A DNA stretch of 64,000 bases. Source: Candidatus Omnitrophota bacterium (GTDB lineage Bacteria > Omnitrophota > Gorgyraeia > Gygaellales > Profunditerraquicolaceae). A program made the translations under genes and the position numbers. Numbering within the stretch: the first letter of the stretch is position 1; the number at the start of each line of letters is the position of its first letter. Under the pieces are notes generated by a model, which saw nothing but the letters and a program-made list of their open reading frames with translations, did no database searches and was not told the origin of the DNA. The stretch covers positions 64,343 to 128,342 of the forward strand of contig JBAZTA010000004.1 in assembly GCA_041662125.1 (NCBI GenBank). The letters run 5' to 3'. Positions 6,479 through 33,714 of the stretch are shown one piece after another.

Positions 6479-7406
6479 GTTTTTTGTCTTGCCCCTGCGC
6501 TACCAGAAAAAGCACTGCCATACGCACAGCAATTCCATTGGTCACCTGCTCCAGAATAACTGAATTCGCCCCATCAGCGACTTCACTGGAAATTTCTATC
6601 CCCCGGTTTAAAGGCCCGGGATGCATCACAATAATATTCTTTTTTGCTTTTTGCAACCGCTCTTTGGTGATCCCGAAATTCTTAAAATATTCCACCTGTT
6701 TCGGAAAAGCATTTTCTCCGTCGCGCTCAAATTGCATGCGCAGGACATTCACAGCATCGGCGTTATGCAATGCTTCTTCTATATCGTGAGAAACCCTCAC
6801 TCCCATTTCTTCGATCGCCGGAGGGATCAATATCTTAGGGGCGCATACCGTAACCTCTGCCCCCAACTTTATCAAACCCCAGATATTAGAACGCGCTACC
6901 CTGGAATGCGCGATATCTCCGACAATACTGACCTTAAGCCCTTGGATATTCCCGAGTTTTTCTTTTAACGTAAACATATCCAGGAGTGCCTGGGTCGGAT
7001 GCTCATGCCAGCCGTCACCGGCATTGACAACACTGATATGTAAATGTTTTGCCAGCATCATCGCCGCGCCGGAATAATTATGGCGTATCACGATGATATC
7101 GGCATTGAGCGCTTGAATATTGGTGCCGGTATCAATAAGCGTCTCGCCTTTTTTTACGCTGGATGTTTCTGTCTCAATATTGATAACATCGGCGGATAAA
7201 CGCTTTGCCGCTACCTCAAAAGAGACCCGGGTCCGGGTTGAAGGCTCATAGAAAAGGTTCACCACCGTTTTGCCGCGCAGCGCAGGGACTTTTTTGATCT
7301 CACGCGTTGAGACTTCTTTAAAGGAATCTGCCGTTGATAAAATAAGCTCTATCTCTTCCCTGCTTAAATCATCCAGCCCCAAGAGATCTTTGCGTGTCCA
7401 AACCAT
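6462..7406 (-). CDS. pyrB: Aspartate carbamoyltransferase catalytic subunit.
   Basis: STRTR carbamoyl-phosphate binding motif (FYEPSTRTRVSFE) and HPGP/HPLP-like motifs. 314 aa. Confidence 0.95.
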   Translation of the reverse strand: MVWTRKDLLGLDDLSREEIELILSTADSFKEVSTREIKKVPALRGKTVVNLFYEPSTRTRVSFEVAAKRLSADVINIETETSSVKKGETLIDTGTNIQALNADIIVIRHNYSGAAMMLAKHLHISVVNAGDGWHEHPTQALLDMFTLKEKLGNIQGLKVSIVGDIAHSRVARSNIWGLIKLGAEVTVCAPKILIPPAIEEMGVRVSHDIEEALHNADAVNVLRMQFERDGENAFPKQVEYFKNFGITKERLQKAKKNIIVMHPGPLNRGIEISSEVADGANSVILEQVTNGIAVRMAVLFLVAQGQDKKHENTD

Positions 7407-7409
7407 GCG

Positions 7410-7949
7410 TTACTCTTTCTTTACCAGCAGCGCTTCATCCGCACCGTCTACTTCCATTAAACGAACCTCAACCGTCTCATGCAAAGAGGTAGGAATATTC
7501 TTTCCCACGTAATCAGGCCGTATCGGCAATTCCCGGTGCCCGCGGTCAATGAGCACTGCCAGCTGTATTGAACGGGGCCTGCCTAAATCTATCAACGCAT
7601 CTAACGCCGCGCGGATAGTCCGCCCCGTATATAAAACATCATCCACTAAAACCACATTCTTATCGGCTATGTCAAAATCGATCTCGGTCTTATGTACCAC
7701 CGGTTGAGAGCTCGTGAGTGAAAGGTCATCGCGGTACAATGTTATATCCAATATTCCCACCGGGATCTCTTTTTCATCAATAGTTTTAATAGCGGCCTTT
7801 AAACGCTCAGCCAAATAAACTCCGCGGCTGCGGATCCCCACGAGACAGAGATCATCAGTCCCTTTATTTTTTTCCAGGATCTCATGGGCAATACGCACAA
7901 TACTGCGGCGGATCGCTTCTTTATCTAACAACTTTGATTTGTCGGGCAT
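7410..7949 (-). CDS. pyrR: Bifunctional pyrimidine operon regulator / uracil phosphoribosyltransferase PyrR.
   Basis: 179 aa. PRTase motif [18 protein letters not shown]-terminal [18 protein letters not shown] is typical of PyrR. Confidence 0.9.
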
Positions 7950-8002
7950 GATCGTTATTTTCGTTTAGTTCGTTAATGTCGTTAGTATCGTTTCCCTTTA
8001 CG

Positions 8003-8212
8003 TTCGCTTACGCTCCTGAGAGACTCTGTTTTCCCTCGCGTAAACGCTTGAAAATTTCGCAGAAATTTTCTACGCACGCTTCGGGATATTTCGGCCATAC
8101 AACTTACGTTCGCTTATGCTATTGAGAGGTTCCGTTTTCCCTTGCCTAAACGCTTAGTAATTTCTTCGAAATTACTTGCGCAGGCTTTGGGATTAATTCG
8201 CGGACGCTAAAG
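8003..8212. repeat. Two tandem ~105-bp imperfect direct repeats (~75% identical), each holding an internal perfect palindrome.
   Basis: R1 (8003-8105) and R2 (8108-8212) both start ttacgttcgctta. The internal palindromes are gaaaatttc-gca-gaaattttc in R1 and gtaatttc-ttc-gaaattac in R2, which are compensatory variants. Confidence 0.6.
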
Positions 8213-8285
8213 TATAGCTTTAGCGTCCGCGAATTAAAAAAAATCCCAACGGCTTATTACGCAGTTGGGATATGATTTTTTAAGG
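8198..8285. terminator. A 16-bp perfect hairpin followed by a second hairpin flanked by A8 and T-rich runs. It could terminate either strand or act as the pyr leader attenuator on the minus strand.
   Basis: ttcgcggacgctaaag-tata-gctttagcgtccgcgaa, then aaaaaaaa, then atcccaac-ggcttattacgca-gttgggat, then atgatttttt. Confidence 0.5.
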
Positions 8286-8354
8286 TCGTGGACCATATTT
8301 CTCTACCTTGCCAGCTTCTCATGAGCCGACTTAAAGGTCTCCTGTATTTAAATA

Positions 8355-8384
8355 AATATACCACCTCTTGGCGTGTTTGTCAAG
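8355..8384 (-). promoter_or_regulatory. Sigma70-like promoter reading leftwards into the pyrR-pyrB-pyrC leader.
   Basis: Minus strand: TTGACA (8384-8379), 18-nt spacer, TATATT (8360-8355). This would give a ~400-nt leader ahead of pyrR. Confidence 0.4.
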
Positions 8385-8538
8385 GTAAATAGCGGCATTA
8401 ATAAGACCGGGACTTATCAATAATAAAACGCGACCGTTCAAGTCCCGGTCTTAGTTATATGGATTAAGTTCAGTTAGCGGGTGACGAGGCATGTTTCGAG
8501 CGATGACGCGAGAAACATGCCTCGGCAGGACCCGCTAC

Positions 8539-8617
8539 CTCGTAAAAATAAAAAGAAGGGGTGCTCAAGAGACGTCCTATGGGGGCTGATAAACCAAAGG
8601 GCGGGAACACCCCTTCT
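8539..8617 (-). terminator. Intrinsic terminator of the giant gene.
   Basis: On the minus strand, just after the TAA stop at 8625-8627: stem AGAAGGGGUG, a ~44-nt loop, stem CACCCCUUCU, then UUUUUAUUUUU. Confidence 0.6.
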
Positions 8618-8624
8618 ATACTAC

Positions 8625-11600
8625 TTATTGTTCTATTGTCACCGGCTCCTTAGCCGTAAACGCGATCTTTGTAAGGGCAACCTGCAAGTCACCTGCCGGC
8701 TTATCCGATTCCAATAAAGCCAGGAAATCCCTGAAAGCCGATTCAGTAGGTTTAAGTTGATCTTCTTCCAGCCTTAAGATATCCGCGATGCAGGCAAGCA
8801 CTTTTTCAACCTGCGGGTTAATATCATCTTTGAAACAACAAGCCTCTAAATATTCCTTGATCCTGTCGCTGGCGGGAATAATCCCTGCCTGGATCATATC
8901 TTGTATTTGCTGCCATTCTTCATTGAGATTAACATTCTCGAAACGGCTCAAAGGCGGTACCACATTCATCCCCGGGACATTCATCGGCTGCGTGACAATA
9001 GGCAACGCTCGCAAATCAATACCTCCGGGCTTAAGCGGGCTTGAAGATAACAATTTGACTGAAGAACCGGATTTTTTGAGTTCAAATGATCCAGCTAACT
9101 CTTTGTTTAAAACATTTCGCACCTCTGCTTGCCCCTGAGGATCAACAATAATATCTACTGCATTTTCTGAATACGGTATTTTCTCCATGACTTTAACACC
9201 GGTGGAATTTAAATATTTTTCAATATCAGTTACATTCAAAACCCCCGCTATTTCATTTGCGGGATAAATAATGAAAGCATTCCAGTCGCCGCTATTCATA
9301 AAAGGCCCTAAAACGCGTTCAATGTATGCGTGCGTCTTTTCTGCCATAGGCGCCAAATGAGCAAGCGCCATTTCCCCGGTCTGCGTATTATACCCTGCGA
9401 CCGCCATACAGGTGATCAAACTAGCGATGCAAGGCTTTTGTCCTATTCCCTGGGTTTTATCCGGGGCTACAATATCAGGGGTTAACTTCAATTGTTCCGC
9501 GACACCCTTCATTTGTCCTTCCCGCCTCTGCTGTCCACCTGCCTCTTGCATCATTTCTCCTACACTTTCCACACCCTGGGTCAACGCAACTTCAAGGAAT
9601 TGTTGATAAAGCTTTACCATATTCTCATCAGTGTCGGCTTTCCTAAGATTTACTTCCTGGCTGCCATAGACCCAACGTATCAACCATTCCTGATGGCCCG
9701 ACAAAGACGCTTGCGTATCTTCAAAAAGGCCTAACCTGCCCGGCACGCCATTCTTTTCAACAGAGTGATATAATGAGTGAAATTCTTTAAACTCTTCCAT
9801 AAGAGATCCCAAAGAAGGGATATTTGATAACGGCGACCCCGCAGATTGATTTTTTGAAAGAACAAAAATAGGAGGAGCTTGATTATCCGGGCTTGCATTA
9901 ATTCTTCCTATGAGCATATAAGGCTCTACCAACTTCAGGTCTGCGAAATCCCCCCATTCATTATGCAAAAATTCGAAAACAGCCGGGAATATTTCATCTT
10001 CCCTTAATTCTCCCCGCGCCCTTAATTCTTCAGACATAAGATTGCAAGCCTTACTTATAATTAAGGAAAAACTATTGAGAAGCTTAAACGGCGCGACGCT
10101 ATAATCATAGTTCTCGATTATTTGAGCGACTTCTTGATGATACTCAACATATACCGCAATATCTATATCGCTGAACGATGAATCATAAACACCCTTAAAT
10201 CCGTTATTTTTAAGCCTGCCTCCGGTCATATAAAGCCTCATTTCACCGGGATCCGTAATACCTAATTCTTTGAGAAAGTTCTGCGCCTCTTCTAAAATCA
10301 ACCGCCCGGCCCTTAATAAATTATCGCCGCTAAAAACAGTGACAAAACTACGAGCGGAACTCCTGGCTATCCGGTCGGAAGAATCAAACTGCCCCCGGGT
10401 AAAGGAGAGCATATCCTGTATCTTGGCTTTAACCACAGCCTCCTCTTCAGGAGTTACTCCTTCAAGAAAGCCGGAATTTTCTGTATTAGCTATCGGGCTG
10501 CTGGTGGTTTTCGTCATCTTAAACATGATCCGACGCGATAATTCCTTGTCCCAAGAATGAACCGCAAGCTCTACAGCCCTTAAACCGGGAGGAACAAATT
10601 TCCGGCTTTCCAGCGTATTACCAACTATAGCGATCCCGATATCTGATAAATGATCCTCAATGCCGTTTAAAAGACGCGTATAATCTGTCACGCCTATTTG
10701 ATAAGCTCCCTCCATTTTAACCTGCGAATCATATACCGCATTGGGCGAATTAAAATAGATAAAATCATACTTACCGCTTACTGTTTCAAATTCCTTCTCC
10801 TTTTCCACTTTATGCACAAAAACTTCCGCATCATTGCTCCCGGGGAATAAAAGGTTAAGATTAAATTTCGTATTCTCCACCGCTTCTTGAAGTATATCAA
10901 TGGCATCAATGCGTATGCGTAACCCCGCGTCTTTTACCTGGGCATAGGCAGTCAACGCATCGACCCCGGTCCCCGAACCGATCACTAATATACGAATACT
11001 ATCTCTACCCTGAGACTTCAATTGTTTTATAACAGCCGGCAATGCTTCTTTATCTTTAATAAACTCCGCGGAATATAAAGAAAGTCCATAGTCAAAAACC
11101 GGAGAATAAACAGCCGTATGGCGCGCCATGACCCCTTTATACATAAGCTTTCTTAACATGCGGTAAGCTTCCTGGTCACGGGTACCGCCGATAACCTGAT
11201 ACTCATTTTCTTTAATTATTTCTTCTAATGCGGCAATTTCCTCTTTTTCTTTTAACACCGGCCTGCGCAAAATCCGGCTTATATACCCTGAGATAATCGG
11301 CGAGCCGGCGGCAACGGTATCAGAACTAAGATTTTCAACTCTCTTCAACGCATCTACCACAACACCAAGGATCTCAGAAAGCCCTAATAAGCTTATTTCG
11401 GTATCCAGGCGCATAAAATGAACATTTTTAAAAAACGCATATTTTTCCTGTAACTTTACAATATTTTCTTTGTTGATGAAAAAGGTCCCTCCCCTGAAAT
11501 CAAAAACAATATCAACTTGTCCCGGCTCATACGCTGAAAGTTCTTTTAAAAATTTATCTAACGTTGCGCCTGTATTGATATCGTTTTCACAGAGTATTAC

Positions 11601-14600
11601 TTTTTTCCCGCGTAATTCTTCCGGATTGATCGGACGGCCGGTACGGCTGTCTTTCCTCCAGGCAAAATCAGGCCGGCCCACCCTTGTTTCCCCGTTCACA
11701 TGAACATCGGCTAACGTTGTCGCAAGCCCCATTAAATCAAACATGGCCGCAGTAAAAGCGCCTGCGCCAGCAATACCAATAGCAATATCATATACCTGGT
11801 TCAGATCCCGCAGCTGTTTTGATTGCGTATCGTATCGCAAATCATAAATTGCAAGAAGCGACTTTAGCCACTTGTAAACAAGGATCTCTGAATCAGCTAA
11901 ACCAAATCGTTTTTTCATATACGACTGTTCAACAAAACCGTTCACTATCTTTTCCTTTATTTCATCATTAAACATATCTTGATGCACAAGGTACCGGAAT
12001 TCCAACCCCTGGATTATAGTATCGTAATTATCTCCTTCATTATTCTTTATATCGTTTTTCAAGTTATCAAATCTTATCTTTACCTGCAACAAGTCCTCAG
12101 CCGAAACCGCTGATTTTATATCAGCCATCAGTATCTCTAACCGGGGAGAATATTTTTGAAGTTTTTCTTTTTCGCTCGCGGAGGAACTCGCGAGATTGCC
12201 TTGAGCCAACGGCGAGCCGGCTGATCTTGTTTCAAACCGCTCTGCTCTCCTGAGCCATTCGGAAATCTTCTTTTGATCGCCGTCACCGACTTCCACTGCA
12301 CCGTTATCTTTTGAATGCACAAGCAATATCTTGCGCTGCTGACCGAGCGCCTGTAAAAATTCAGAGCCTTCCACTGCTTTTTGCAATTGATCTACGGTAA
12401 GATGAAAACCCGCCGGAAAACCATTTTCTGAGATAAGGATTGAGTTTTCTCCATTGGGGTCCTGAGTTTTTAGTTTGTCCGCTGCCCAGGTAAAATCATC
12501 CATAGAGCTGGTATCAACAACATAGCCAATATTGCCCATGTTAGAAGTAACCACAAAACCATAGGTAGCAATAGGGTGGCTTTGATGATTACGAAACACG
12601 ATTGTTACACCTAACCCTTTATCAATAAATTCTATCTCATCTTTCCCGTTTTTCTCAAAACCACGCTCAACTTTCTCATTCTGTAATAATGCTCTTGCCC
12701 ATTGCCGGGAGAAGCCTTGAGCCTCTTGGAGAGTCCTCTTTTCATAAGTTTCTCCACCAAGCAAGTAAGCCGCGATGACTTCTATTAAGTCATCTTTTAC
12801 TTCTTGCGTCATAATTAAATCGTATGTATTGATTTTTCCATTAGCCTTTCTTACAATGTATTGCATGTTTTTTCCCTGGCCCTCTTGTGCCGCTTCAATT
12901 TTCGATTCAGAGAATTGCTCAATAATGAATTGCACAAATCCGGCATTATGGTCAGTGTGATTATGCGTCAATATCCAACGAGAGGGGAGTAATTTTTCCG
13001 CCTTGAGATTAACGTATGCTTCAAGTGAAGGATCCACAAAAATACTTTCTGTTCCGATATTGATAAGAAAATTGGTCACATCTTCTTCTGACAAGGCATC
13101 ATTGACGCCCATAAACGTAACCGACACCGTACCTGCAGGACGATTGTGATATCGATCAAACTGTTCCGGCGTAAAATTCCCTGTTTTATGGACGTGTTCA
13201 TCCTTATTTGTATCGCGTTTACGAGAAACTATCTCCTGCTCTTTTACCTCATTGCCATAACGCTCTATAAATTTATAATTTTCTCCATCTTTTACAACCT
13301 CGACCTCCACATCTCTACCATCTTCACTTAAAACCGTAAATTTCGTCTTGTTTTCCAAGTTTATAATGTTATACGGATTATCTTTTTCCAGTGCCAAGGC
13401 GCTCACCAAAGAAGCGACAAAGCCGTTACTTTTCTTGATCGCAAGGTCTAAAAGCATCTGCACAGCCAAAGCCTCTCGTTCATTATTAACGACAATATAG
13501 GTCGGCCTGATTGCCAAGTTGTCCACCAGTCGAAAACCCTTGGCCTTCAACGATTCATCATTTTTTGGCACAGAAGAAACACGAGAAGCCTCGTAAAATA
13601 GATTACCGAATAAAATAAACTGCAGGTCAGCGCCGTCATAGCCTTGTCCAAACCCAGGGATAACAATTTGTGGGGTTTCCTGCTGTTTATTACTAAATGA
13701 GGGGGAGCCGTTTACAACGACCAGCTTTGATAGCGCAAGCTCACTTCGCGATCCCTCTTCCGCCTTATTTTGCAGCGGCGAGCCGGACGATCTCTGTCTA
13801 AGATTATAACCAAAAACCTGCGCTGCGAACGAAGCAGATTCGCTCAAAAATGCTTCCCGCAATGATGGGTGATTGCGTTTCTTGAGCTCTTCCTGAGCGA
13901 ATTCCTCAATAACTTCACCGGAGACTCCTACGGGCATTTTCTTGACGATCTCACCTGCCATCTTTTTTGCAACGTTGGATGTACAATCTAAAAACAACCT
14001 TGCAACTATTTCCTGGCCGCTGAAATTTGCAAAAGGTGTTAAAGCGATAAAGTTATTTTTTATTTCTTCGAAATTTGCTGAACGGATAGCGGCGTAAAGA
14101 AACTGGCGCAGCGGCATTTTCTTGTAAGCCGCTAATTCCATACATAACCCGGCAAAAACGCTTGTTTCTCCAACAATATCCAAGACTTTCTTTTCCTTTG
14201 AGTAGCATAAATTCTCCGCGGGAATATCCATTATATTATCGCCGCTGACAATATAACTGCAAAGCTCGTCGCGAAAACGCCTGAATCCTCGCGTTAGTTC
14301 CTCGCCCTGTTCATTAATATTCTTAAGGGAGCCTGTCCTTTCAAGGAAAAACCATATAATGTGGCTTAATTCATGCATGATATTTTCCTTCTTGAAATCA
14401 CCGGCTGATTTAATGATAAAACTGGGCTCCTGGGGCTTTGAACGCAGATGAGCAACTGCCTGGCTGCTCGCAAGCACTCCTCCGACTTTTTCCGAAAACT
14501 GCTTATAATAACCGGCGTCTATCTCTAAAACCGGAATTCCCGCGTATCGGGTAAAGCTAATCTTCCCCTGCGCTTCGGCAATAAACGCATCGGCTTTATC

Positions 14601-17600
14601 TGTCGTAATCCCTTCTGAAACTAAAAACATCCTCAAAAGCTCCTGGGGCTGTATAACTTCCGCTTGAGCATTATTTTTCCTTAATTCAACCTCTAATTTC
14701 TCAACGGCTTTTTGATAGAAATTTCTGAGGCCGGCAGGAAAACCTGACTCCGCGATAAGTACGAGTATTTTTGCTTCTTTTTCTGCCTCTGAACTATTTT
14801 CTAAAAGGATCTCCAGCGCCCCGCTATAAAAGCGGCCATGGAAATCCGCAAGCTTCTGTAAATATCCAGGGTTCAGTGGACTTTTATTTTGCAGTGGCGA
14901 AGCGGATGCTTTCGCTGATACCGCAGATCCGGTGGAGAATGGCTGCTGCAATAAAACTTCGCGGTAATCTTTTAAGCTTTGAATATCCTCCTTAAGCATT
15001 TCTCTATCAGATGTATCCAATGAATCGCCAAACCCAACCAATATCCTTGCCAACGCTTTCTCAAGCTTATCAATGACACTTTTAACCTGTTCGACTTTTG
15101 AAGGTTCCCCCTGATACTTTGCTTTTAGCGGCCAGCTTTCCTGATCATATACAAACAGAGGTTCAAGATATTCATTTTTTAAATCGCGTAACCTGCTGAT
15201 CGCGACAATTGCTTTTTCTTTCTGCACAACTTCCCGCTCAAGACTTTGTACCATTTCAAGCCGCGGGATGCTTCCGTAAATCGAAGATTTATCTCCCATG
15301 CTCAATAAAACAGGATTAAACGCCCATTCGTTATTCAACCCAAACGGGTTCTCCTTAACAGGTTCGCGAAAAGAAACAAACCCATCAAATGAAACGCTCA
15401 AATCGCCTCTTCCCGCGGGTAAAATCACTAACCCAACCTCAGATGATCTTTCAATTTCAGGCTCAAACTGATCAGCAGCAGCATCGATAGTAAACCATTG
15501 AGACCCCAGCTTGAATAATCCATACGCATGATACCCTGGCTCTCCCTTATTTTTACCCGTATTAACCAAAACCGCGCTTTCTTTACCAAGGGCTTCCTGC
15601 AGCCACTGGATAACATCCCCGTTCCTAAGCCAGCAGTCATAGCGCACCGCGCTACCAACATCACCGTCTCTCGAATAAGCCTCTTTTTTATCTTTTTCTT
15701 CTAATTTCTCTTTTACTGCCTTAAGCGCAGCCAACACCTTATCCAGCGCTTGTTGATCAACCCCCTTTAAATAATCTCCCCAGCGCGCCATAAAATTTTC
15801 AGGAGTAACCTTAACTCCTTGCAAAAAGTTCCCAAATGTTTGCCAATCAAGGGACACCTCAGCAGCCTCTAAAGAAGCATCTACCGGCGAAGAAGAATTC
15901 TTCACAATCGGGGTTGATTTTAACACTCCGCTCAATTCTTTTTCAATAATGCCCCGGGTATTATTCATATCACCTGACTCGATCATTGCTTTAATCGCGC
16001 GGATCAAAGGCTCATGCTCAACGATCTGACCGTGCCCCTCTGACCCCAGGGCAATCGTAAAAGCTCTTTGTAAATATTCTTGATATTCCGGAGTACGGGG
16101 AGCGTGATAATCATCTTGCACCGCAAAAGACAAAAGGGAATTGACGGAATCCTCAAATCTTGCTTCCCGTCCGCGATTATTCATCTGTGTATTTCCCGGA
16201 TCCTGCGCGCGGGCTATTTCGCGCTGGTCCTGAAATCCTACTAACGCGACAAGCCCCATGGCTATCTGCGGCAGGACCTTAGATGCGCCTGTTGCTTTTA
16301 TCGACCCAAAAGGCGTAGCTGCCAGCTCAATAACCGAGGTTTTACGAAACATCTCTGCGGCTTGGCCACTTGCATTAAGTACTCCATCCCGCAGAATTTT
16401 AGCGCCGTAAGAATGGGCAACAATAACCGTTTCATTCTCCCGATCAGTACCGATATAAAGACTAAGCTGCCTCGATAAAAGAGCGGAAACATCATTGATT
16501 TTATCGAAATAGTTGTATGAAAAAACAGCCAAATTAAATTTACCTTCGAATTCGGAAAGAAATTTATTAAAATAGGATGGAGAGCCATCAGCGCCATGAA
16601 TGAATACAACTGTCGGCCTATCCTGTTGAAACGCGCCTACCTGATATAAGCCCGGAACGCGGGGGATATGCATACTCAGTACGTCTCTGAGGCTCACCTG
16701 GCTTTGCTGTGGCGACTCTATCCGCCCGGAAACACTCAAAGGATAGTTTTGTTTTATTAACGGCCCGCACCCCAATGTCGAAATAGACAACAATACTGTG
16801 CCAAACAATAAAACCGCTGTTTTCTGATACCATGAAGCTTGGCTCAGGGGAGAGGCAGCTGAATCGCTTATAGGAGAGCCTGCTGATCGCTTTTGAGTTA
16901 CTTGTATGCGGTATAAAGAACCATTCTCATCAATAACTAATAAAGCCTTTCTATCAGAAGTAACGCGCAGCATATCATGGTTAGCAGTAAATTTTCCTGT
17001 TTCTCCAACGTATCCCACATATAAAAGCTTCTTTCCTTTATAAATTATATCTCTGGAACCCGTCATCACGAGAATGTTGTCTTTGAACCCATCAAGAAAG
17101 CCTTGAGGATTGGGGCCCTGCACGTTTAAAGTAAGTCCTTGGTATTCGGCTAATTCGGGGCTGACCACATATTGCAAAGTAAGTTCCCAAACTTTTCTGG
17201 CTCTTTCATAATCAAGTATGCGCGAAGATTCATTCCACTCTTTTTTTAAATCACTTTGCGAATATTGGCGCGCTGCGTCTTGCGTTTGTTGTCCGTATGA
17301 TTGGCCTTGTACCGGTGAGATCAAAGGACTAACGGGGTTTATAAGCAGCGTCACAGCCAGGATAGCAGCTGACAAGAATTTACTGATCCCGTTCTGCCCC
17401 GGAGCTACCAATGCTGAAGATGCTTTTACCGGCGAGCCGAAAGATTGATTTTCTTCCGTTACAGCTTCTGCGGCGCCTGAAACAAAATAATGCCTGATCC
17501 CATCAGCAATATTCTTCGATCTTTTCTTAAAAGAGCCTTTCTCCTCCATCAGTTTTTCAACGGTATCATTCGTAACCCTCGGGTCCTGATATTGATAAAG

Positions 17601-20600
17601 CCGCTCCTGAAGCTTTTTTAGCTGCTCAGAGGAGAGCAGGACCATGAGTCGAGGCAATATCTTTTCCACATTAGACGCAGAAACCCCATAATAAAAGAGC
17701 ATTTCAATAATAAACTCATCAAGAGAGCCCGGGATAGTTTTGCCCGGGTCAATTATCCTCAGCGCCCCCGTTTCCTTCTCAAGCATAATATTATTACTAT
17801 GCAGGTCCAAAGACATCCTGCCGTCAAGGACAATTTGCTTATTCAAAACGAAAAAATACCTGGCTAAGAACTCGCTCACGTTTTTTGCCAGCGTTTCAGT
17901 AATAATATTCTTATTGGGCTGCGTTTCACTCAATATCTTATAATCCTTATCCCATCTCAATAAAGCATCCAGCAGCTCAACTAAAGAATCCAAAAAAGCA
18001 GCATTTTTTGCAACCATTAACTGCACCGTCCTTATTTTCATAAGGGTGCTTTTTACTTGCTCTGCGGCATCTCCCGTAGTTATACGCTCTTGCCTCAACA
18101 ATCCTTGCACAATATTTCTTAATTCTTTGTTGCCGGCGATTAAGCCGCACAATGTATCGACCTGCCCCAGCGTAAATCCATCCACAAACTCTTCAACAAG
18201 CACTGTCAGGTATTCGCCGGAATCAAATTTCGTCTCGGAATACTCATATCCACCGGGGGCCGAAGAATTAGCCTGCAAATAAAACACTTTCCCCAGATTG
18301 GGGACAAAACCCGTGCCCCAAAGATCGTTCAGGACCTCTTCTTCTCCTTCTTCAAACATCGCCTCATTTTGAGCCGGCAATTTCAGCGCTACGCTGAAAG
18401 CCTTAACCTCTCCATCATTATTAACGATATCGACCTTAAAAGCATGTTTATTCGCTCCCGACGCAAGATAACCTATGGAAAGTTTTGCTATATCAGCGAA
18501 TGTAAAATTAAAACTAAGCTTTGCCAGAATATCATTTATACTATCCGGCTTATATTTCGCCAGAAATTGTGTGACTTTTTCTGCCTCCCGAGCAACTTTC
18601 CCCTGTTCTGCCGCAGACAAGACGGCCCCTTCCCCCCATGTTCCTCCCGGAGAGGTCATCCTCGATTCAATAATAGGCCCCAGATTATCGGCAGAATCGC
18701 TCATCGGCGAGCCGGCGGATTTTCTTGATGAAAAAAACGATAAGTCAGCGATTGGCCGGTTATCCCAGGACTGAAGATCATTCTGGGATGTCCACTCTTT
18801 AATGGAAGCCGCCATTTGACGGGCACCGGACTCCAAGAATTTCCAAACCATATCCGGAGTAATCGCCAATAGTTTTTTATCATTAAGGGAAACATCACGG
18901 TATTGCGCATTTTCAGGCCATAGCTCTTTCTTATGAATAATATTTTGGATATCTTCCTTATGGCTCAGAATGAACGCGCTTATTTTTTCAGCTGCCTGGA
19001 TATACGCTTCCTTATTCCCCCGCAAACGGTAACCTTCCCCATTATAAGAATGTTCAATATCCTGAAAGTCTCTTTGGTAATAAAGCGGAGCCAAAGCAGT
19101 ATCAAAATCAAAAGGTATTAATGCGCCGTCTTTACTAAGATATTCCCGGTCATTTTGATATAACAAGAGGCCGCAATACATGTCAAGAAGGGCATTATTT
19201 TTTAACGCGGCTATGTTTTGCGATTCTTCCTGGTCACCAAGTAACCTGCTTTTTACCGCGGCCGCTCCCGGGATATATTCCGTCGCAATTATACTCTCTG
19301 AGCTCTCATCCAATGTGAAGACGCGGACCAGAGGCAATAAGACCGAAGAGCCCTGGAACGATCTATCTTTCAGCATTAACGCAAGCAACTCGCGGGCGAA
19401 CAAAGACCTTTTCCCGTTCTCCCGCAAAGTATAATAAATTGCCGTATCTTCGCTTTGAACCATCATTGCGGTATTTATTTCATTTTTTGCGACAAAGAGT
19501 TTTAAGGATCCCGAAGCATTCTCTTCTCCTTCAATTGCGATAACATTAAAACCTTTACTCGAATCCAAAGACAAGCCCTTAACGAGTGATTCGATGTTTT
19601 GTTGTTTACCTGACCCGGGGACCTGGGCAATAATCCATATCTTTTTCCCATCACCGATTGTTTGCCGCCAAGGATCTTTTGGCAATACTGTAGCAGGAAC
19701 ATATCCGTTCTTTAGAGCCAGGGAAACGGTTTTTTCATCAGCAATGGGCGAAGAGCTCTTTTTTACTTTTACAGCCGGCTTTATAGGAGGTGTTTTGACC
19801 GGCGCCTTAAGAGACGTTTTAACAGGCGCCTTAATTGAAGCTTTCACAGGAACAGGAGCTGCTTTCACAGGGCCGGGAGATTTTTGTTGAGCAGGCTGAT
19901 CAACCTGTCCATTCTTGAGGGCAGCCTCAGCTACTGAGGCTATAACATAATAATCAAAAGATTCTTGCGGAACTGCTTTCTTAAAAACGACCATGGGGCC
20001 TGCGTTATAGATAATGCTGCTACGCTGCGACCTGGAAAGATTAAAAAAATGAGGAGATTTATGGCTCAGGAAATCGACATATCTTTGAACCCGAAAACAG
20101 TAAATAGCCGCCCCTAATTCATAATGCGCCTTTGCAGGGAGCTTATCCATCGTTGCCCCGAACGGGTTTTTTTGTTTGGCATCCTTTTTGTATTTCTTAT
20201 ATATATCCCCATATTTCTTGAATGGCTTTAATATTTCATATGCGGCCCTTTCTTCTTTTGTCATTTTATTTGTTTTATTTACTTTGTCATTTTCTTCTTT
20301 TTGCGCCAATTCGTCTATAAACTGCATTAAATCTCTAAAAGCTATCTCTCTGATCTGCATCAACCCTTTAGCCCCTTGAGAAGAGGTAGCTGTCAGGACT
20401 TGCCCTATATTTTCAATACCGGCAATGATCTCCAAATGCACAGGCATTACTTCTTGCGAAATAACATTGCTTGCCTTTCCTTTTTCTACCATATTCCTAA
20501 AAACTGTCCGGGCCTCTTTCGACAATTTATTTCTAACAACCCCGACAACTGCGGCAGACCTCTGAAGTACTGCTTTATTGATACCGGTGAAATTATTCGC

Positions 20601-22040
20601 TGGCAAAGCCTGAGGAACGGGTTTTCGCACAACCTGCGTATTTATCAAATCCTGATGAGCTAACTGGGAAGGAGAAAAAAGCATTGCTACAAACAAACCG
20701 ATCGAAGAAAACTTTTTTATCTGGTCACCGACATTTTGTAAGAATGATCTCTGCTGCTTCGCCGGCGTCTTGGCAATCGCGGAAGAACTGGCATTTCCTT
20801 CTTGAGAGACGGATGCAGGTTGGTCTATAAATACCGGAACATCGCTTTTTAACTCTATTCGAACAGAGGGATGTTCTACTGTCCCGCCTTCTACGAAAAA
20901 TGATATGCCTTTATCCTGGAATCGTGCAAGAGGGGAACTGCCTGCGCGTGAATGCCCGACAATCGAAGATACCACAAAAGACGACGCCCCGGGGAAAGGC
21001 ACCTGAAAGTCGGTTAAATTCATCCCTCCGGAAAAATAACTTCTGATCGACTGCCCCATCGGAGTAGAAACAGGGATTTTAATATTATATTCGCCGTCTT
21101 TAAACGACCTTTGATACTCCTTAAAATAGGTAGTCTTTGACCAGGGGGTTTGTGACGTCAAACCGTTTAAATTCTTTTTATCGATCATCCAGGAATATAA
21201 TCCGCCTTTTCCGTAAAAACGCGCCTTAAACCATTGCGCCATGATCAATGAATAATATACCTGCCTTAAAGGAGCATATCGTTTGGCAGTATTAACGTCT
21301 TTGGTAATTTTAGGGATGATGCGCTCTCTGATCAGTTGCGAAGCGTATTCATTTAAAGCCTTAAGCCGGTCATCCTCAAAATTGTAAACAGCCGATCCCT
21401 TAAGGTAATCCTGCTCCAGCATTACTTTAAGCGTTGCTTTATAGATATAGGCATTATCATTTGCCTCGCGAATGATGATCTCATTGGGAACGATCCACGG
21501 CCTGGTTAAGGTGGGAATAGTTATATTATCCGAGCCTAAAAGCTCTTCTGCTTTCTTGTATAATTTATCCCAATACTCTTTTCCTTCAGGGGTTTCAGGA
21601 GAAGTAAATTGCGCGGTATCTTTTTTAAGCTGAAGATCCGCTTCCAGAAGGACTTTACCGAGATCGGTCTTAGCCAATAAAGGGTCGATGATATTATCTT
21701 CGGCGTCCGGCCGTAAGTTAACCCAAAAAGAGTCATTGGGCAGGCTAATACCGATAAAGAAATAATTCAAGATTGTTTTAGTCGTGTCCTCAAGGGCAGG
21801 TTTATTTAAATTCCTGGCGTCGCCTTTATCTAAAAGAAGGCTAAAGTTATTGTTAAGGTTATCATAGGAAAGATAGCGTAAGTGCAAGGGCCGGAATTTG
21901 TCCTGGATGAGAGTATTACGCAGCTGCGCGAAATGGCCGGAAATATCCAACTGCCCGGCAATTTGCGCAAAACCGGACTGTTCAAAGAAAAAGCAAAAAG
22001 ACAGAAAAATAGCGATACATCTTATAACTTTTCTTGGCAT
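8625..22040 (-). CDS. Giant secreted multidomain protein (4471 aa) with an N-terminal signal peptide and multiple unrelated enzyme-like modules.
   Basis: A single uninterrupted ORF. The N-terminus MPRKVIRCIAIFLSFCFFFEQSGFAQIAG is signal-peptide-like. Motifs recognised: kinase-like DLHSNNIML...RIIDPG (~17745-17810), alpha/beta-hydrolase AHSYG (~16405), HELSH (~14360), MBL THNHTDH (~12950), PRTase-like VILCENDINTGAT (~11580), SAM-MTase ILVIGSGTGVD (~10970), nucleotidyltransferase GG...SDIDIAVYV (~10150-10230), and an APVK repeat (~19740-19880). Confidence 0.85.
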   Translation of the reverse strand: MPRKVIRCIAIFLSFCFFFEQSGFAQIAGQLDISGHFAQLRNTLIQDKFRPLHLRYLSYDNLNNNFSLLLDKGDARNLNKPALEDTTKTILNYFFIGISLPNDSFWVNLRPDAEDNIIDPLLAKTDLGKVLLEADLQLKKDTAQFTSPETPEGKEYWDKLYKKAEELLGSDNITIPTLTRPWIVPNEIIIREANDNAYIYKATLKVMLEQDYLKGSAVYNFEDDRLKALNEYASQLIRERIIPKITKDVNTAKRYAPLRQVYYSLIMAQWFKARFYGKGGLYSWMIDKKNLNGLTSQTPWSKTTYFKEYQRSFKDGEYNIKIPVSTPMGQSIRSYFSGGMNLTDFQVPFPGASSFVVSSIVGHSRAGSSPLARFQDKGISFFVEGGTVEHPSVRIELKSDVPVFIDQPASVSQEGNASSSAIAKTPAKQQRSFLQNVGDQIKKFSSIGLFVAMLFSPSQLAHQDLINTQVVRKPVPQALPANNFTGINKAVLQRSAAVVGVVRNKLSKEARTVFRNMVEKGKASNVISQEVMPVHLEIIAGIENIGQVLTATSSQGAKGLMQIREIAFRDLMQFIDELAQKEENDKVNKTNKMTKEERAAYEILKPFKKYGDIYKKYKKDAKQKNPFGATMDKLPAKAHYELGAAIYCFRVQRYVDFLSHKSPHFFNLSRSQRSSIIYNAGPMVVFKKAVPQESFDYYVIASVAEAALKNGQVDQPAQQKSPGPVKAAPVPVKASIKAPVKTSLKAPVKTPPIKPAVKVKKSSSPIADEKTVSLALKNGYVPATVLPKDPWRQTIGDGKKIWIIAQVPGSGKQQNIESLVKGLSLDSSKGFNVIAIEGEENASGSLKLFVAKNEINTAMMVQSEDTAIYYTLRENGKRSLFARELLALMLKDRSFQGSSVLLPLVRVFTLDESSESIIATEYIPGAAAVKSRLLGDQEESQNIAALKNNALLDMYCGLLLYQNDREYLSKDGALIPFDFDTALAPLYYQRDFQDIEHSYNGEGYRLRGNKEAYIQAAEKISAFILSHKEDIQNIIHKKELWPENAQYRDVSLNDKKLLAITPDMVWKFLESGARQMAASIKEWTSQNDLQSWDNRPIADLSFFSSRKSAGSPMSDSADNLGPIIESRMTSPGGTWGEGAVLSAAEQGKVAREAEKVTQFLAKYKPDSINDILAKLSFNFTFADIAKLSIGYLASGANKHAFKVDIVNNDGEVKAFSVALKLPAQNEAMFEEGEEEVLNDLWGTGFVPNLGKVFYLQANSSAPGGYEYSETKFDSGEYLTVLVEEFVDGFTLGQVDTLCGLIAGNKELRNIVQGLLRQERITTGDAAEQVKSTLMKIRTVQLMVAKNAAFLDSLVELLDALLRWDKDYKILSETQPNKNIITETLAKNVSEFLARYFFVLNKQIVLDGRMSLDLHSNNIMLEKETGALRIIDPGKTIPGSLDEFIIEMLFYYGVSASNVEKILPRLMVLLSSEQLKKLQERLYQYQDPRVTNDTVEKLMEEKGSFKKRSKNIADGIRHYFVSGAAEAVTEENQSFGSPVKASSALVAPGQNGISKFLSAAILAVTLLINPVSPLISPVQGQSYGQQTQDAARQYSQSDLKKEWNESSRILDYERARKVWELTLQYVVSPELAEYQGLTLNVQGPNPQGFLDGFKDNILVMTGSRDIIYKGKKLLYVGYVGETGKFTANHDMLRVTSDRKALLVIDENGSLYRIQVTQKRSAGSPISDSAASPLSQASWYQKTAVLLFGTVLLSISTLGCGPLIKQNYPLSVSGRIESPQQSQVSLRDVLSMHIPRVPGLYQVGAFQQDRPTVVFIHGADGSPSYFNKFLSEFEGKFNLAVFSYNYFDKINDVSALLSRQLSLYIGTDRENETVIVAHSYGAKILRDGVLNASGQAAEMFRKTSVIELAATPFGSIKATGASKVLPQIAMGLVALVGFQDQREIARAQDPGNTQMNNRGREARFEDSVNSLLSFAVQDDYHAPRTPEYQEYLQRAFTIALGSEGHGQIVEHEPLIRAIKAMIESGDMNNTRGIIEKELSGVLKSTPIVKNSSSPVDASLEAAEVSLDWQTFGNFLQGVKVTPENFMARWGDYLKGVDQQALDKVLAALKAVKEKLEEKDKKEAYSRDGDVGSAVRYDCWLRNGDVIQWLQEALGKESAVLVNTGKNKGEPGYHAYGLFKLGSQWFTIDAAADQFEPEIERSSEVGLVILPAGRGDLSVSFDGFVSFREPVKENPFGLNNEWAFNPVLLSMGDKSSIYGSIPRLEMVQSLEREVVQKEKAIVAISRLRDLKNEYLEPLFVYDQESWPLKAKYQGEPSKVEQVKSVIDKLEKALARILVGFGDSLDTSDREMLKEDIQSLKDYREVLLQQPFSTGSAVSAKASASPLQNKSPLNPGYLQKLADFHGRFYSGALEILLENSSEAEKEAKILVLIAESGFPAGLRNFYQKAVEKLEVELRKNNAQAEVIQPQELLRMFLVSEGITTDKADAFIAEAQGKISFTRYAGIPVLEIDAGYYKQFSEKVGGVLASSQAVAHLRSKPQEPSFIIKSAGDFKKENIMHELSHIIWFFLERTGSLKNINEQGEELTRGFRRFRDELCSYIVSGDNIMDIPAENLCYSKEKKVLDIVGETSVFAGLCMELAAYKKMPLRQFLYAAIRSANFEEIKNNFIALTPFANFSGQEIVARLFLDCTSNVAKKMAGEIVKKMPVGVSGEVIEEFAQEELKKRNHPSLREAFLSESASFAAQVFGYNLRQRSSGSPLQNKAEEGSRSELALSKLVVVNGSPSFSNKQQETPQIVIPGFGQGYDGADLQFILFGNLFYEASRVSSVPKNDESLKAKGFRLVDNLAIRPTYIVVNNEREALAVQMLLDLAIKKSNGFVASLVSALALEKDNPYNIINLENKTKFTVLSEDGRDVEVEVVKDGENYKFIERYGNEVKEQEIVSRKRDTNKDEHVHKTGNFTPEQFDRYHNRPAGTVSVTFMGVNDALSEEDVTNFLINIGTESIFVDPSLEAYVNLKAEKLLPSRWILTHNHTDHNAGFVQFIIEQFSESKIEAAQEGQGKNMQYIVRKANGKINTYDLIMTQEVKDDLIEVIAAYLLGGETYEKRTLQEAQGFSRQWARALLQNEKVERGFEKNGKDEIEFIDKGLGVTIVFRNHQSHPIATYGFVVTSNMGNIGYVVDTSSMDDFTWAADKLKTQDPNGENSILISENGFPAGFHLTVDQLQKAVEGSEFLQALGQQRKILLVHSKDNGAVEVGDGDQKKISEWLRRAERFETRSAGSPLAQGNLASSSASEKEKLQKYSPRLEILMADIKSAVSAEDLLQVKIRFDNLKNDIKNNEGDNYDTIIQGLEFRYLVHQDMFNDEIKEKIVNGFVEQSYMKKRFGLADSEILVYKWLKSLLAIYDLRYDTQSKQLRDLNQVYDIAIGIAGAGAFTAAMFDLMGLATTLADVHVNGETRVGRPDFAWRKDSRTGRPINPEELRGKKVILCENDINTGATLDKFLKELSAYEPGQVDIVFDFRGGTFFINKENIVKLQEKYAFFKNVHFMRLDTEISLLGLSEILGVVVDALKRVENLSSDTVAAGSPIISGYISRILRRPVLKEKEEIAALEEIIKENEYQVIGGTRDQEAYRMLRKLMYKGVMARHTAVYSPVFDYGLSLYSAEFIKDKEALPAVIKQLKSQGRDSIRILVIGSGTGVDALTAYAQVKDAGLRIRIDAIDILQEAVENTKFNLNLLFPGSNDAEVFVHKVEKEKEFETVSGKYDFIYFNSPNAVYDSQVKMEGAYQIGVTDYTRLLNGIEDHLSDIGIAIVGNTLESRKFVPPGLRAVELAVHSWDKELSRRIMFKMTKTTSSPIANTENSGFLEGVTPEEEAVVKAKIQDMLSFTRGQFDSSDRIARSSARSFVTVFSGDNLLRAGRLILEEAQNFLKELGITDPGEMRLYMTGGRLKNNGFKGVYDSSFSDIDIAVYVEYHQEVAQIIENYDYSVAPFKLLNSFSLIISKACNLMSEELRARGELREDEIFPAVFEFLHNEWGDFADLKLVEPYMLIGRINASPDNQAPPIFVLSKNQSAGSPLSNIPSLGSLMEEFKEFHSLYHSVEKNGVPGRLGLFEDTQASLSGHQEWLIRWVYGSQEVNLRKADTDENMVKLYQQFLEVALTQGVESVGEMMQEAGGQQRREGQMKGVAEQLKLTPDIVAPDKTQGIGQKPCIASLITCMAVAGYNTQTGEMALAHLAPMAEKTHAYIERVLGPFMNSGDWNAFIIYPANEIAGVLNVTDIEKYLNSTGVKVMEKIPYSENAVDIIVDPQGQAEVRNVLNKELAGSFELKKSGSSVKLLSSSPLKPGGIDLRALPIVTQPMNVPGMNVVPPLSRFENVNLNEEWQQIQDMIQAGIIPASDRIKEYLEACCFKDDINPQVEKVLACIADILRLEEDQLKPTESAFRDFLALLESDKPAGDLQVALTKIAFTAKEPVTIEQ

Positions 22041-22250
22041 GGTAAAGCGAATAAAATTTTTATACTTCTCTGTTTATTGTTGGTTTATCAGCCTTAAGAC
22101 AAGTATGCAATAATAAGGGAAGGAATAGCCAGCTTTTTCGACGGAAAATTGAAAGCGCTTTCAGGAAAATTGCGAAGAAATGACAAAAAATTTGAATATT
22201 TGTCACAAGTTGCGTGGGACAAGACACAAATAACTGGATTACTATATAAT

Positions 22251-22420
22251 GAACGGGTGGCTTGGACTGCTTTCGAACGGGGCATAAAGGCAAGGAGCGG
22301 GCACGGTGTCCGAGTGAAACGAGGACGAGCGACGCAGCCGACCTGAGTGCAGCCACGCCACGCCGGGGCGTGGCAAACGTCCCCGCGAGAAACAGTCCAA
22401 GACAGGACCCGTTCACTAAT
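22251..22420. ncRNA. Candidate structured RNA (~170 nt) with a long closing helix and a GC-rich internal hairpin. Strand and identity are undetermined.
   Basis: 5' gaacgggtggcttggactg (22251-22269) pairs with 3' cagtccaagacaggacccgttc (22399-22420). Internal perfect hairpin gccacgcc-gg-ggcgtggc (22357-22374). Local GC is far above that of the surrounding intergenic DNA. Confidence 0.3.
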
Positions 22421-22559
22421 AAAAACTGACAGATTTATTTCAAAATAAATCGAACCGTCCCCTATTCTCCCGAAATGCCAAAGACCATTGGCGTAAAAAT
22501 CGTGCTTAAGCGAAAAAACCGACAGATTTATTTAAAAAGGAATTGAGGAAAACAGAGAA

Positions 22560-25179: not shown

Positions 25180-25254
25180 CGTCCCCAACCGGATTTGAAC
25201 CGGTGTCGAAAGCTTGAAAAGCTTTTGTCCTAGGCCAGGCTAGACGATGGGGAC
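25180..25254 (-). tRNA. tRNA-Glu (anticodon TTC).
   Basis: The reverse complement is GTCCCCATCGTCTAGCCTGGCCTAGGACAAAAGCTTTTCAAGCTTTCGACACCGGTTCAAATCCGGTTGGGGACG. Acceptor GUCCCCA/UGGGGAC, anticodon loop UUUUCAA, T-loop UUCAAAU. Confidence 0.85.
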
Positions 25255-33649: not shown

Positions 33650-33714
33650 TTTGATTCATAAAAATTCAACCAGGAATAATAAATGTTTTATTAAAGTAAA
33701 GGAGAGTTTTAGAG

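Follow-up and report, generated by a model that had tools for sequence, protein, structure and literature searches.

Capped cassette proteins, a very large Omnitrophota family represented by a 13.4-kb gene

Giant multi-enzyme proteins, most of them with a predicted signal peptide or transmembrane (TM) helices, are known from the phylum Omnitrophota (PMC10066038; 10.1101/2023.11.21.568195; 10.64898/2026.06.07.730766), whose members are predicted to be host-dependent or predatory (PMC10066038; 10.1101/2023.11.21.568195; PMC13153191). The papers on these giants report that many enzyme types are combined in one chain, that the domains are divergent and that TM helices recur periodically (10.64898/2026.06.07.730766; 10.1101/2023.11.21.568195). 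The "multi-enzyme metabolic cluster" catalogue of Nielsen & Lui (2026) is defined by Pfam domains and a length of at least 10,000 amino acids (aa) (10.64898/2026.06.07.730766). The Archaeovorins and Dockerin-type giants exceed 30,000 aa, combine many TM helices with SecA_DEAD, C39 or S8, glycosyltransferase, glycoside hydrolase and dockerin domains, and lie next to secretion, pilus and pilZ genes; the same work raised the idea that one such protein is cleaved after translation to yield several products (West-Roberts et al. 2023, 10.1101/2023.11.21.568195). Here we examine a 13.4-kb gene in a 64,000-nucleotide (nt) stretch of the Candidatus Omnitrophota assembly GCA_041662125.1 (contig JBAZTA010000004.1, positions 64,343 to 128,342 of the forward strand), referred to below as the window. 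The gene is genuine and falls into a family specific to Omnitrophota, very large and apparently undescribed, which we named the capped cassette proteins.

As a preliminary description of the window had stated, the gene is a single unbroken open reading frame (ORF) of 4471 aa. With its stop codon it lies on the minus strand (8625..22040). Its product (498.6 kDa, pI 5.7) is 100% identical to P0001, which is NCBI WDL87_07435 of a Candidatus Omnitrophota metagenome-assembled genome (MAG). With the Nielsen & Lui proteins it shares the phylum, apparently a tiling by many unrelated enzyme-type domains, a signal peptide and/or hydrophobic segments, and strong divergence of the domains from their families, but at 4,471 aa it is too short for their catalogue and it has no above-threshold Pfam match. 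Like the Archaeovorins, it comes from Omnitrophota and has highly divergent domains of methyltransferase, hydrolase and peptidase type, whereas none of their length, TM-helix, Pfam or neighbour features was found for the ORF, which is flanked by TP_methylase, glmS and gyrA upstream and by pyrR and pyrB downstream. Neither of the two Omnitrophota giant-protein papers describes caps or junctions in the text searched; in that of Nielsen & Lui (10.64898/2026.06.07.730766) the strings "linker", "cleav" and "polyprotein" do not occur, and protein termini are mentioned without conserved caps. The motif strings of the family described below were absent from the searchable literature.

Caps, cassettes and their turnover

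A homology search with the ORF product returned giant Omnitrophota proteins that matched just ~8% of the query. When the matches were mapped module by module, an N-terminal cap (N-cap, residues 1-365) was found in 119 of 119 giant homologues, at 55-88% identity, and a C-terminal cap (C-cap, residues 4333-4471) in 117 of the 119, while each interior module was matched in two to four of these proteins only. Out of 1.84 billion proteins, a profile of N-cap residues 1-365 retrieved the representatives of 7,707 clusters, and for 6,389 of these the expectation value (E) was below 1e-30; in all 150 matches listed, the match lay at residues 1-350. The ORF is therefore no isolated combination of modules but part of a family of at least 7,707 clusters with conserved caps, a membership that had gone unrecognised in the preliminary description, according to which no known family combines such modules. 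Among species representatives of GTDB, 417 loci were confirmed, and the 80 loci that we examined came nearly all from Omnitrophota MAGs, with several loci per genome. Of 235 members fetched, 205 have a C-cap that ends 0-18 residues before the protein does, and almost always no more than 5. Complete members range from 609 aa, which leaves little beyond the two caps, to 7,391 aa. The family was found only twice in 2.9 million viral contigs and an association with viruses was therefore dropped.

Searches of Pfam, NCBIfam and PDB sequences gave no match for either cap, and neither resembles a solved structure. Both are globular or helical, without Gly-rich repeats; the C-cap is a five-helix bundle whose structural matches are generic only. 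NheA, a pore former of the ClyA type, occupied the top Foldseek rows for the N-cap, at an E of 0.19 and a TM-score of 0.13, which we do not regard as evidence of relatedness. A search with the C-cap alone gave just short fragments at contig edges, among them P0238, a positional orthologue split by a frameshift. At locus L081 of another MAG (6439-10723), a frameshift divides the positional orthologue into two overlapping ORFs, one of 1201 aa and one of 240 aa with the C-cap. Either an error in sequencing or a genuine disruption may lie behind this split, and it shows that some family members apparently devoid of a C-cap are frameshift artefacts. What lies between the caps differs widely: other members contain divergent PGK, TIM, GAPDH, enolase, transketolase and similar enzymes, with many significant Pfam domains, and in the ORF itself five folds are indicated, all by sub-threshold matches.

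Of the 80 loci, 28 have the gene order gyrB-gyrA-glmS-TP_methylase-[capped gene]-pyrR-pyrB-pyrC, as do P0002 and L081. The capped gene at this conserved locus varies from ~1.4 to 4.47 thousand aa (kaa), and beyond the closest relatives these genes have almost no cargo in common. Among the three closest relatives the order of the modules, which we number along the chain with the caps as M1 and M14, is retained, with whole modules gained or lost at junctions: P0002 has M4 and M9-M14 in addition to M1 and a portion of M2; P0003/L001 has M1, M2, M7, M9, M11, M12 and M14; and L002 has M1, M2 and M4-M7, after which its contig ends. M3 and M8 were found in the ORF alone. The points at which homology with P0002 and P0003 breaks off lie at junctions or at most 40 aa from them.

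The ratio of nonsynonymous to synonymous substitution rates (dN/dS) was taken against L001 and L002. The N-cap has a value of 0.08 and the C-cap one of 0.12, while the cargo modules lie at 0.13-0.33. Caps and testable cargo are thus under purifying selection, and the cargo is functional protein and not filler. The synonymous divergence (dS) of the flanking housekeeping genes is 0.65-1.1, and that of the caps falls in the same range. Cargo dS extends from 0.19 to 2.8, with M4, M5 and M7 at 0.19-0.34 and M2, M9 and M11 at 1.2-2.8. This discordance with the flanks points to cassettes having been exchanged between lineages at different times. Motifs of catalytic type are retained in orthologous and in more distant modules. 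Together, a head cap, variable cassettes joined at junctions and a tail cap, with this mode of evolution, very probably describe the family correctly.

An assembly chimera or a junk-gathering pseudogene would account for the absence of homologues of M3 and M8 from our searches and for the sub-threshold level of all Pfam matches of the ORF. We nevertheless hold such an artefact to be very improbable. In four independent assemblies a capped gene stands at the same gyrB-gyrA-glmS-methylase-pyrR-pyrB locus with most module junctions reproduced (the runs M1-M2, M4-M5-M6-M7 and M9 through M14), which excludes a chimera for most junctions, one of the refutations that the preliminary description had named; the M2-M3-M4 and M7-M8-M9 junctions were not reproduced in them. 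Moreover, the 13.4 kb contain no stop codon, GC content and GC content at third codon positions (GC3) are even along all modules, and every testable module has a dN/dS of 0.08-0.33 with its motif residues retained in orthologous modules.

Modules and junctions of the ORF

The enzyme-type motifs that had been listed for the ORF were all found, within a few tens of bases of where they had been placed. None of the profile matches of the ORF (Pfam, NCBIfam, PHROG) reached curated cut-offs, and a PDB search of the product gave nothing significant. For five modules (kinase-like, alpha/beta-hydrolase, metallo-beta-lactamase, phosphoribosyltransferase and methyltransferase) the sub-threshold matches agree, weakly, with the folds suggested by the motifs; the nucleotidyltransferase, HExxH, SLT-like and CheD-like labels are at motif level only. 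The enzyme signatures first proposed thus find weak profile agreement in those five modules and lack profile support for the HExxH and Pol-beta nucleotidyltransferase sites.

All modules lie on the minus strand. The chain opens with a signal-peptide-like N terminus (aa 1-26; 21963..22040) composed of MPRKVIR, CIAIFLSFCFFF and EQSGFA/Q. Written as MPRKVIRCIAIFLSFCFFFEQSGFA/Q, it has the n-, h- and c-regions of a Sec signal peptide, as the preliminary description had perceived in calling it signal-peptide-like, and it is kept family-wide with the consensus ...LLFEQxGFAQVAG. The rest of the N-cap (aa 27-365; 20946..21962) is a conserved family domain with a folded core at ~aa 50-340. M2 (aa 366-762; 19755..20945) starts at the junction GSSPL and has a second variant, ASSSAI, at aa 418. 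It includes a signal-like segment (aa 444-455), an SLT-like motif set absent from the earlier list (E...GAKGLMQ...YNAG, aa 540-682, with E543, GAKGLMQ at 556-562 and YNAG at 678-681) and a K-A-P-V-K repeat (aa 722-761), which lies at 19758-19877 and to which Tandem Repeats Finder assigned a 24-nt period; apart from this short array and one 12-nt array, the gene has no tandem repeats. The M2 motifs are also kept in P0003 and L002. Pfam SLT gave no match in M2, and the lytic-transglycosylase label stays at motif level. M3 (aa 763-1109, junction SSSPI; 18714..19754) is an orphan: neither the 235 family proteins nor the 80 loci contained a homologue, and Pfam gave no match.

M4 (aa 1110-1534, junction SAGSPM; 17439..18713) is protein-kinase-like, with Lys1220, D1412-x-H-x-x-N1417 and D1431; the strings DLHSNNIML and RIIDPG lie at 17781-17807 and 17742-17759. 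Its profile support comes from Choline_kinase (E 0.015) and a PHROG kinase (E 0.002), and when aligned by hhalign with the Pfam-verified ABC1 modules of relatives it reached a probability of 89% over just 34 columns, those of the catalytic loop. Direct similarity to the ABC1 domain of P0007 was rejected, since the homologous stretch of P0007 is another region. The M4 motifs are kept in P0002, L002 and P0007, and its dN/dS is 0.21. M5 (aa 1535-1720, junction FGSPV; 16881..17438) has a signal-like segment at aa 1552-1567 and is 91% identical to its L002 counterpart (dN/dS 0.23, dS 0.19).

M6 (aa 1721-2049, junction SAGSPI; 15894..16880) is alpha/beta-hydrolase-like (Abhydrolase_6, E 0.003), with HG at aa 1814-1815 and a nucleophile elbow at aa 1875-1879. 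The elbow had been reported as G-H-S-Y-G; it is present, at 16404-16418, and reads A-H-S-Y-G. The internal hydrophobic helix noticed at the same time is at 16770-16820 and finishes in STLG/C, presumably a lipobox by its PROSITE pattern, which makes aa 1741-1759 a lipoprotein-type signal. The lipobox Cys and the elbow are kept in L002, and the dN/dS of M6 is 0.22. M7 (aa 2050-2379, junction SSSPV; 14904..15893) has no assigned fold and is shared with relatives: in P0003/L001 and L002 it is 85% identical, with a dS of 0.30-0.32, far under that of the flanking genes. M8 (aa 2380-2752, junction SASPL; 13785..14903) is the other orphan, with no homologue in the same family proteins and loci and no Pfam or PDB match; its HELSH (aa 2556-2560, within MHELSHIIW at 14352-14378) would make it a metallopeptidase at motif level, by HExxH alone.

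M9 (aa 2753-3274, junction SSGSPL; 12219..13784) is metallo-beta-lactamase-fold-like. Its H-x-H-x-D-H (aa 3026-3031, within THNHTDH at 12948-12968) is unchanged in P0002 and P0003, its matches are NCBIfam GloB (E 0.003), Lactamase_B_2 (E 0.012) and the metal-dependent hydrolase PHROG_392 (E 4e-4), and its dN/dS is 0.16. M10 (aa 3275-3578, junction SAGSPL; 11307..12218) is phosphoribosyltransferase-like by Pribosyltran (E 0.005) and by a phosphoribosyl pyrophosphate (PRPP) loop at aa 3481-3493, the acidic loop VILCENDINTGAT at 11562-11600. It is homologous (E 5e-15) to residues 2252-2347 of P0008, a stretch above the Pfam PF00156 threshold. M10 was also considered as an offshoot of the adjacent pyrR; there is no similarity between them. 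M11 (aa 3579-3846, junction AAGSPI; 10503..11306) resembles class-I S-adenosylmethionine (SAM) methyltransferases: it matches the HemK-like NCBIfam family PRK14968 (E 3e-6), has motif I as GSGTG (in ILVIGSGTGVD, 10959-10991) and a degenerate NPPY-type motif IV (FNSPN), has a dN/dS of 0.25 and has homologues with the motifs retained in P0002, P0003 and P0004.

M12 (aa 3847-4067, junction TSSPI; 9840..10502) has the Pol-beta nucleotidyltransferase-type motif GG-x17-D-I-D, located as GG...SDIDIAVYV at 10146-10229. The motif is kept in P0002 and P0003 and the module has a dN/dS of 0.33 and no profile match. M13 (aa 4068-4332, junction SAGSPL; 9045..9839) has a CheD-like Cys...His pair (C...AHLAP, aa 4208-4231) that the earlier list lacked and that is kept in P0002 and in one module of P0004; it has no Pfam match. 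The C-cap (aa 4333-4471, junction SSSPL; 8628..9044) consists of GGIDLRALPI (GGIDL at 9012-9026), a variable spacer and the five-helix bundle. No module was found to be copied from another gene of the window, and none to be an internal duplicate of another.

The modules of the ORF are bounded by 13 copies of [SGA]-S-P-[ILMV], mostly SAGSP[ILM], which bears out the earlier view of a mosaic with a recurring linker: independently evolving, enzyme-derived modules are split by a recurring junction. Across 120 family proteins, the strict form [SA]-A-[SG]-S-P-[VIL] was observed 182 times against 2.7 expected, and the most over-represented 5-mers of the cargo are variants of the junction (ASSPV, SASSP, SSSPV, AGSPV and others). 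The sequence context surrounding the motif has no extended conservation. In relatives with well-recognised domains, the junctions lie outside the Pfam domains and, where they precede a domain, 3-31 aa ahead of it, as in SSP-VKVGINGFG at the start of a GAPDH module; some follow directly on the end of a domain (P0097, P0073, P0049). Junction codons are skewed, with TCG at 49% against a background of 10%, CCG at 58% against 29% and GCC at 56% against 26%. AGC and TCT nevertheless occur as Ser codons too, so that shared junction ancestry and selection at the amino-acid level both seem to act. Junction-less members (P0015, P0023 and P0025 among them) have a different recurrent 5-mer, (A)QKDGG, which may be an alternative junction.

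Several systems bear a resemblance to this plan. Integron arrays likewise have a fixed chromosomal platform, fast cassette turnover and short recurrent junctions with biased codons, but the cassettes of the ORF are fused in frame, the junction is ~15 nt long, and no integrase or attC-like structures were seen. The adhesins LapA and MpIBP of the RTX type have repetitive Ig-like extenders in mid-protein, a C-terminal RTX signal for the type I secretion system (T1SS) and no Sec signal peptide. Their layout is similar to that of the ORF, in that both ends are conserved modules, the C-terminal one placed after a short Gly-Asp motif, and the stretch between them is very long and variable, but the middle of the ORF is enzyme-like and GGIDL is not the RTX nonapeptide. 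MARTX toxins have Gly-rich repeats, a C80 protease that is activated by inositol hexakisphosphate and cleaves after Leu, and type I secretion. In them, as in the ORF, conserved N- and C-terminal regions bracket recombining enzyme cassettes separated at short sites; this exchange of cassettes between conserved termini reflects a shared mode of evolution and is not evidence of membership.

We give hardly any credence to the idea that the ORF product belongs among the true MARTX-type or polymorphic toxins, although conserved termini around recombining enzyme cassettes do follow the logic of a MARTX mosaic. The preliminary description had suggested a comparison with both classes, and the ORF failed the defining features of both. 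Gly-rich terminal repeats were not found by Pfam or Tandem Repeats Finder; neither Peptidase C80 (Pfam and NCBIfam, at E up to 1) nor any other protease domain was detected; and the N terminus has a Sec-type signal, which is at odds with a T1SS-only architecture. Where polymorphic toxins such as Rhs and CdiA have a variable toxin followed by an immunity gene, the ORF has its conserved C-cap followed by the housekeeping gene pyrR. There was no meaningful PADLOC or PHROG toxin match. Membership of a defence system was rejected as well, since the PADLOC matches are of low complexity or sub-threshold.

Internal signals, and possible export and processing

Shortly after junctions (within 20-40 aa), signal-peptide-like segments are enriched, at 24% within 40 aa against 8% for random positions. 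The ORF has three. In M2, KK-FSSIGLFVAMLF lies 25 aa past the ASSSAI junction variant, and in M5, SK-FLSAAILAVTLLI lies 17 aa past the junction; these two had not been listed before. The third is QK-TAVLLFGTVLLSIS-TLG/C of M6, the lipoprotein-type signal whose Cys is kept in L002. In relatives, the cargo interior contains Tat-type signals of the form M-x-RR-x-F-L, some of them 15-16 aa past a junction and some with their original Met (MNRRTFLG, MTRRAFLL, SRRDFLK). By their appearance, the cassettes look like formerly separate genes that were fused in frame.

The explanation that we favour is that the ORF product is an exported modular carrier of enzymes or effectors, possibly processed at the junctions. 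To the statement as a whole, the architecture and evolution of the family included, we give an even chance; to the exported payload-carrier role, taken by itself, somewhat less than that, and to cleavage at the junctions, which we regard as doubtful, less again. The whole chain would be made as one polypeptide and exported by Sec through its N-terminal signal. The caps would supply the constant functions, whether export, anchoring, assembly or partner recognition, and the cassettes a variable payload of divergent kinase-, hydrolase-, transferase- and methylase-like enzymes that might act at the cell surface or inside an attached host or prey cell. The junctions would be module boundaries and the likeliest processing sites. 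Such a carrier is in keeping with the lifestyle, host-dependent or predatory, that has been proposed for Omnitrophota.

Several observations weigh against this carrier. The signal peptide was assigned by reading the sequence alone; the caps match no known fold, which makes their role a guess; and every enzyme assignment in the ORF is under curated thresholds. The payload is of cytoplasmic type, dependent on ATP, SAM or PRPP, and would find no cofactors outside unless it were brought into a second cell. A chain already exported from its N terminus would have little use for internal Sec, lipoprotein and Tat signals, and the positive charges ahead of the internal hydrophobic cores conflict with a translocated N-cap. 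Beside the paralogue groups of the 80 loci, no secretion, export or anchoring gene is conserved and the neighbours are housekeeping genes; no protease family was found in the protein (Pfam, NCBIfam) or conserved among those neighbours. Finally, ~20% of members are without any ASSP-type junction, so that the motif is typical and not universal.

Two of these observations are better accommodated by the strongest rival, a true polyprotein or stop-less operon. The product would be one chain, or be interrupted by ribosomal skipping at S-S-P, and would be cut in the cytoplasm at ASSP[VIL]. The N-cap, the SLT-like module, M5 and the M6 lipoprotein would then be exported by their own signals, and the kinase-, metallo-beta-lactamase-, phosphoribosyltransferase-, methyltransferase- and nucleotidyltransferase-like modules would remain in the cytoplasm. 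This gives a better account of the internal targeting signals, some of which appear complete after junctions (Tat in relatives, the lipobox with its kept Cys in the ORF), removes their clash with the N-terminal signal, and gives a better account of the cofactor-dependent enzymes of cytoplasmic type. It also agrees with a junction that is a short specific motif instead of a long flexible linker and that can stand at the native N-terminal edge of a domain, as in the GAPDH example. Viral polyproteins of the picornavirus or 2A type similarly join proteins of independent origin in one ORF by short junctions before a proline. They differ in that the ORF encodes no protease and has no 2A-like upstream context, and in that cleavage is here only proposed. 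We know of no cellular, chromosomal polyprotein system with multiple paralogues.

We consider the polyprotein unlikely all the same. A protease was not found in the protein, and among the 80 loci no conserved neighbour could be its source. A 2A-like skipping site needs extended upstream conservation, and none was seen around the junctions; the fifth of members without the motif is a difficulty here too. The obligatory caps, and a frame kept open as far as the C-cap in thousands of "operons", would be left unexplained. Given the fast turnover of cargo, the internal signals could instead be relics of recent capture.

The internal hydrophobic segments bear on a further reading, an uncleaved envelope scaffold. 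The protein would be a one-piece, membrane-stitched or surface "coat", with these segments as TM anchors and the modules alternating between the two faces. For the giant proteins of Velamenicoccus, which are much larger, a coat has already been put forward (10.64898/2026.06.07.730766, section 9; PMC10066038), the ORF has three such segments, and with three anchors most of its cofactor-dependent modules would face the cytoplasm. The family as a whole is not built in this way, however: a hydrophobic segment occurs within 150 aa after the N-cap in 11% of members, and 58% have none anywhere after the N-cap, which makes a general membrane-stitched or sensor topology unlikely. In the ORF the segments are signal-peptide-like, with charges before the core and one lipobox, and not stop-transfer-like, and the SLT-like module would face the cytoplasm. 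We therefore judge the scaffold improbable. A layout like that of sensor kinases, in which the N-cap would be a periplasmic sensor flanked by two TM helices, was rejected, since a hydrophobic segment follows closely on the N-cap in just 11% of members.

Upstream region, chromosomal setting and implications

The palindrome GAAAGCGCTTTC, a candidate operator, lies 111-122 nt upstream of the start codon (22151..22162) and occurs once in the 64-kb window. With GAAAVCGYTTTC as the criterion for the family, it was found ~100-120 nt before the start of the N-cap in 52 of 83 loci and only twice elsewhere in 1.18 Mb of locus sequence. With its flanks the palindrome reads TGAAAGCGCTTTCA, which has the shape TGnAAnCGnTTnCA of LacI/CcpA-type sites, and it is putatively an operator of that class. 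An extra palindrome at L067 (3441-3452) lies ~2.1 kb upstream of the copy that precedes the capped gene and has no obvious capped gene behind it.

Alignment of the upstream regions of positional orthologues gave invariant columns over a promoter-like stretch and 5' leader on the minus strand (22082..22130). In the ORF these comprise CTGGCT at the -35 position, the -10-like CATACT (22102-22107) and GGCTGATAAACC (22082-22093). The family consensus has, at fixed spacing after the palindrome, CCTTGAA and [CT]ATACTT (-35- and -10-like) and then a GGCYG...GCC leader element; the -10-like hexamer stands 54-55 nt past the palindrome in 26 of 42 loci. A generic sigma-70 scan called no site on the minus strand. 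Upstream conservation extends over ~110 nt among positional orthologues, and the same elements precede paralogues at other loci. With palindrome and promoter-like elements in common, the family looks like one regulon, which suggests family-wide control, possibly by a factor of the LacI/CcpA type.

Upstream of the promoter region, a GC-rich island lies in the AT-rich spacer (22270-22400 in the minus-strand reading) and contains the inverted repeat GCCACGCCCCGGCGTGGCGTGGC. The island is kept in L002, is not alignable in L001 and has no Rfam match. The motif AAATAAATCTGTC[GA]GTTTTT occurs in two copies, at ~22503-22523 and 22420-22440.

The gene lies ~11 kb from the oriC region and is co-oriented with replication. 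The oriC region includes dnaA (31884-33218) and dnaN (30630-31724), with gyrB and gyrA, on the minus strand, and yidC (34091-35617), parA (35864-36715) and parB (36696-37559) on the plus strand; gene orientation flips at the intergenic ~33219-34090, and cumulative GC skew has its minimum at ~30-32 kb. The window also contains a 6S/SsrS RNA gene (51528-51687, plus strand; Rfam RF00013, 59.7 bits, over the gathering score) and five tRNA genes, three at 40378-40777 (plus), one at 25180-25254 (minus) between glmS and gyrA, and one at 3335-3406 (minus). At L017 (4075-7227), in one paralogue group, the gene upstream of the capped gene is an EF-G homologue whose ORF, counted from its first Met, has ~358 extra N-terminal residues before the GTPase domain; this extension may simply result from the start codon chosen. 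The gene brings to mind the EF-Tu/EF-G content reported for Omnitrophota hypervariable regions (10.64898/2026.06.07.730766).

Long multi-enzyme proteins were already known in Omnitrophota, but they had been handled as sequence-unique oddities. At least for the 0.6-7 kaa class, there is one plan: two conserved caps, a specific junction, exchangeable cassettes under purifying selection and a shared candidate operator. This plan spans thousands of protein clusters, with several per genome at stable chromosomal positions. It offers handles on an uncultivated, possibly predatory phylum, namely a family profile, a junction, a DNA site as bait for a regulator and a natural experiment in cassette turnover. 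If cleavage at the junctions is true, it would be an unprecedented mode of bacterial gene expression; if it is false, the family would be a large reservoir of exported, fast-evolving enzyme payloads for interaction with hosts or prey. A still wider proposal, to which we attach low confidence, is that a sizeable share of the Omnitrophota proteome is encoded as chromosomal polyproteins, in which former genes, many of them with their own start Met and Sec, lipoprotein or Tat signal, are linked between caps by the five-residue junction ASSP[VIL], are freed by a protease or by ribosomal skipping ahead of the proline and share one LacI-type operator. Should the polyprotein reading be true, these genes would do on the scale of a cellular genome what polyprotein expression does in viruses, and the "periodic transmembrane helices" of the giants would become the internal signal peptides of fused genes.

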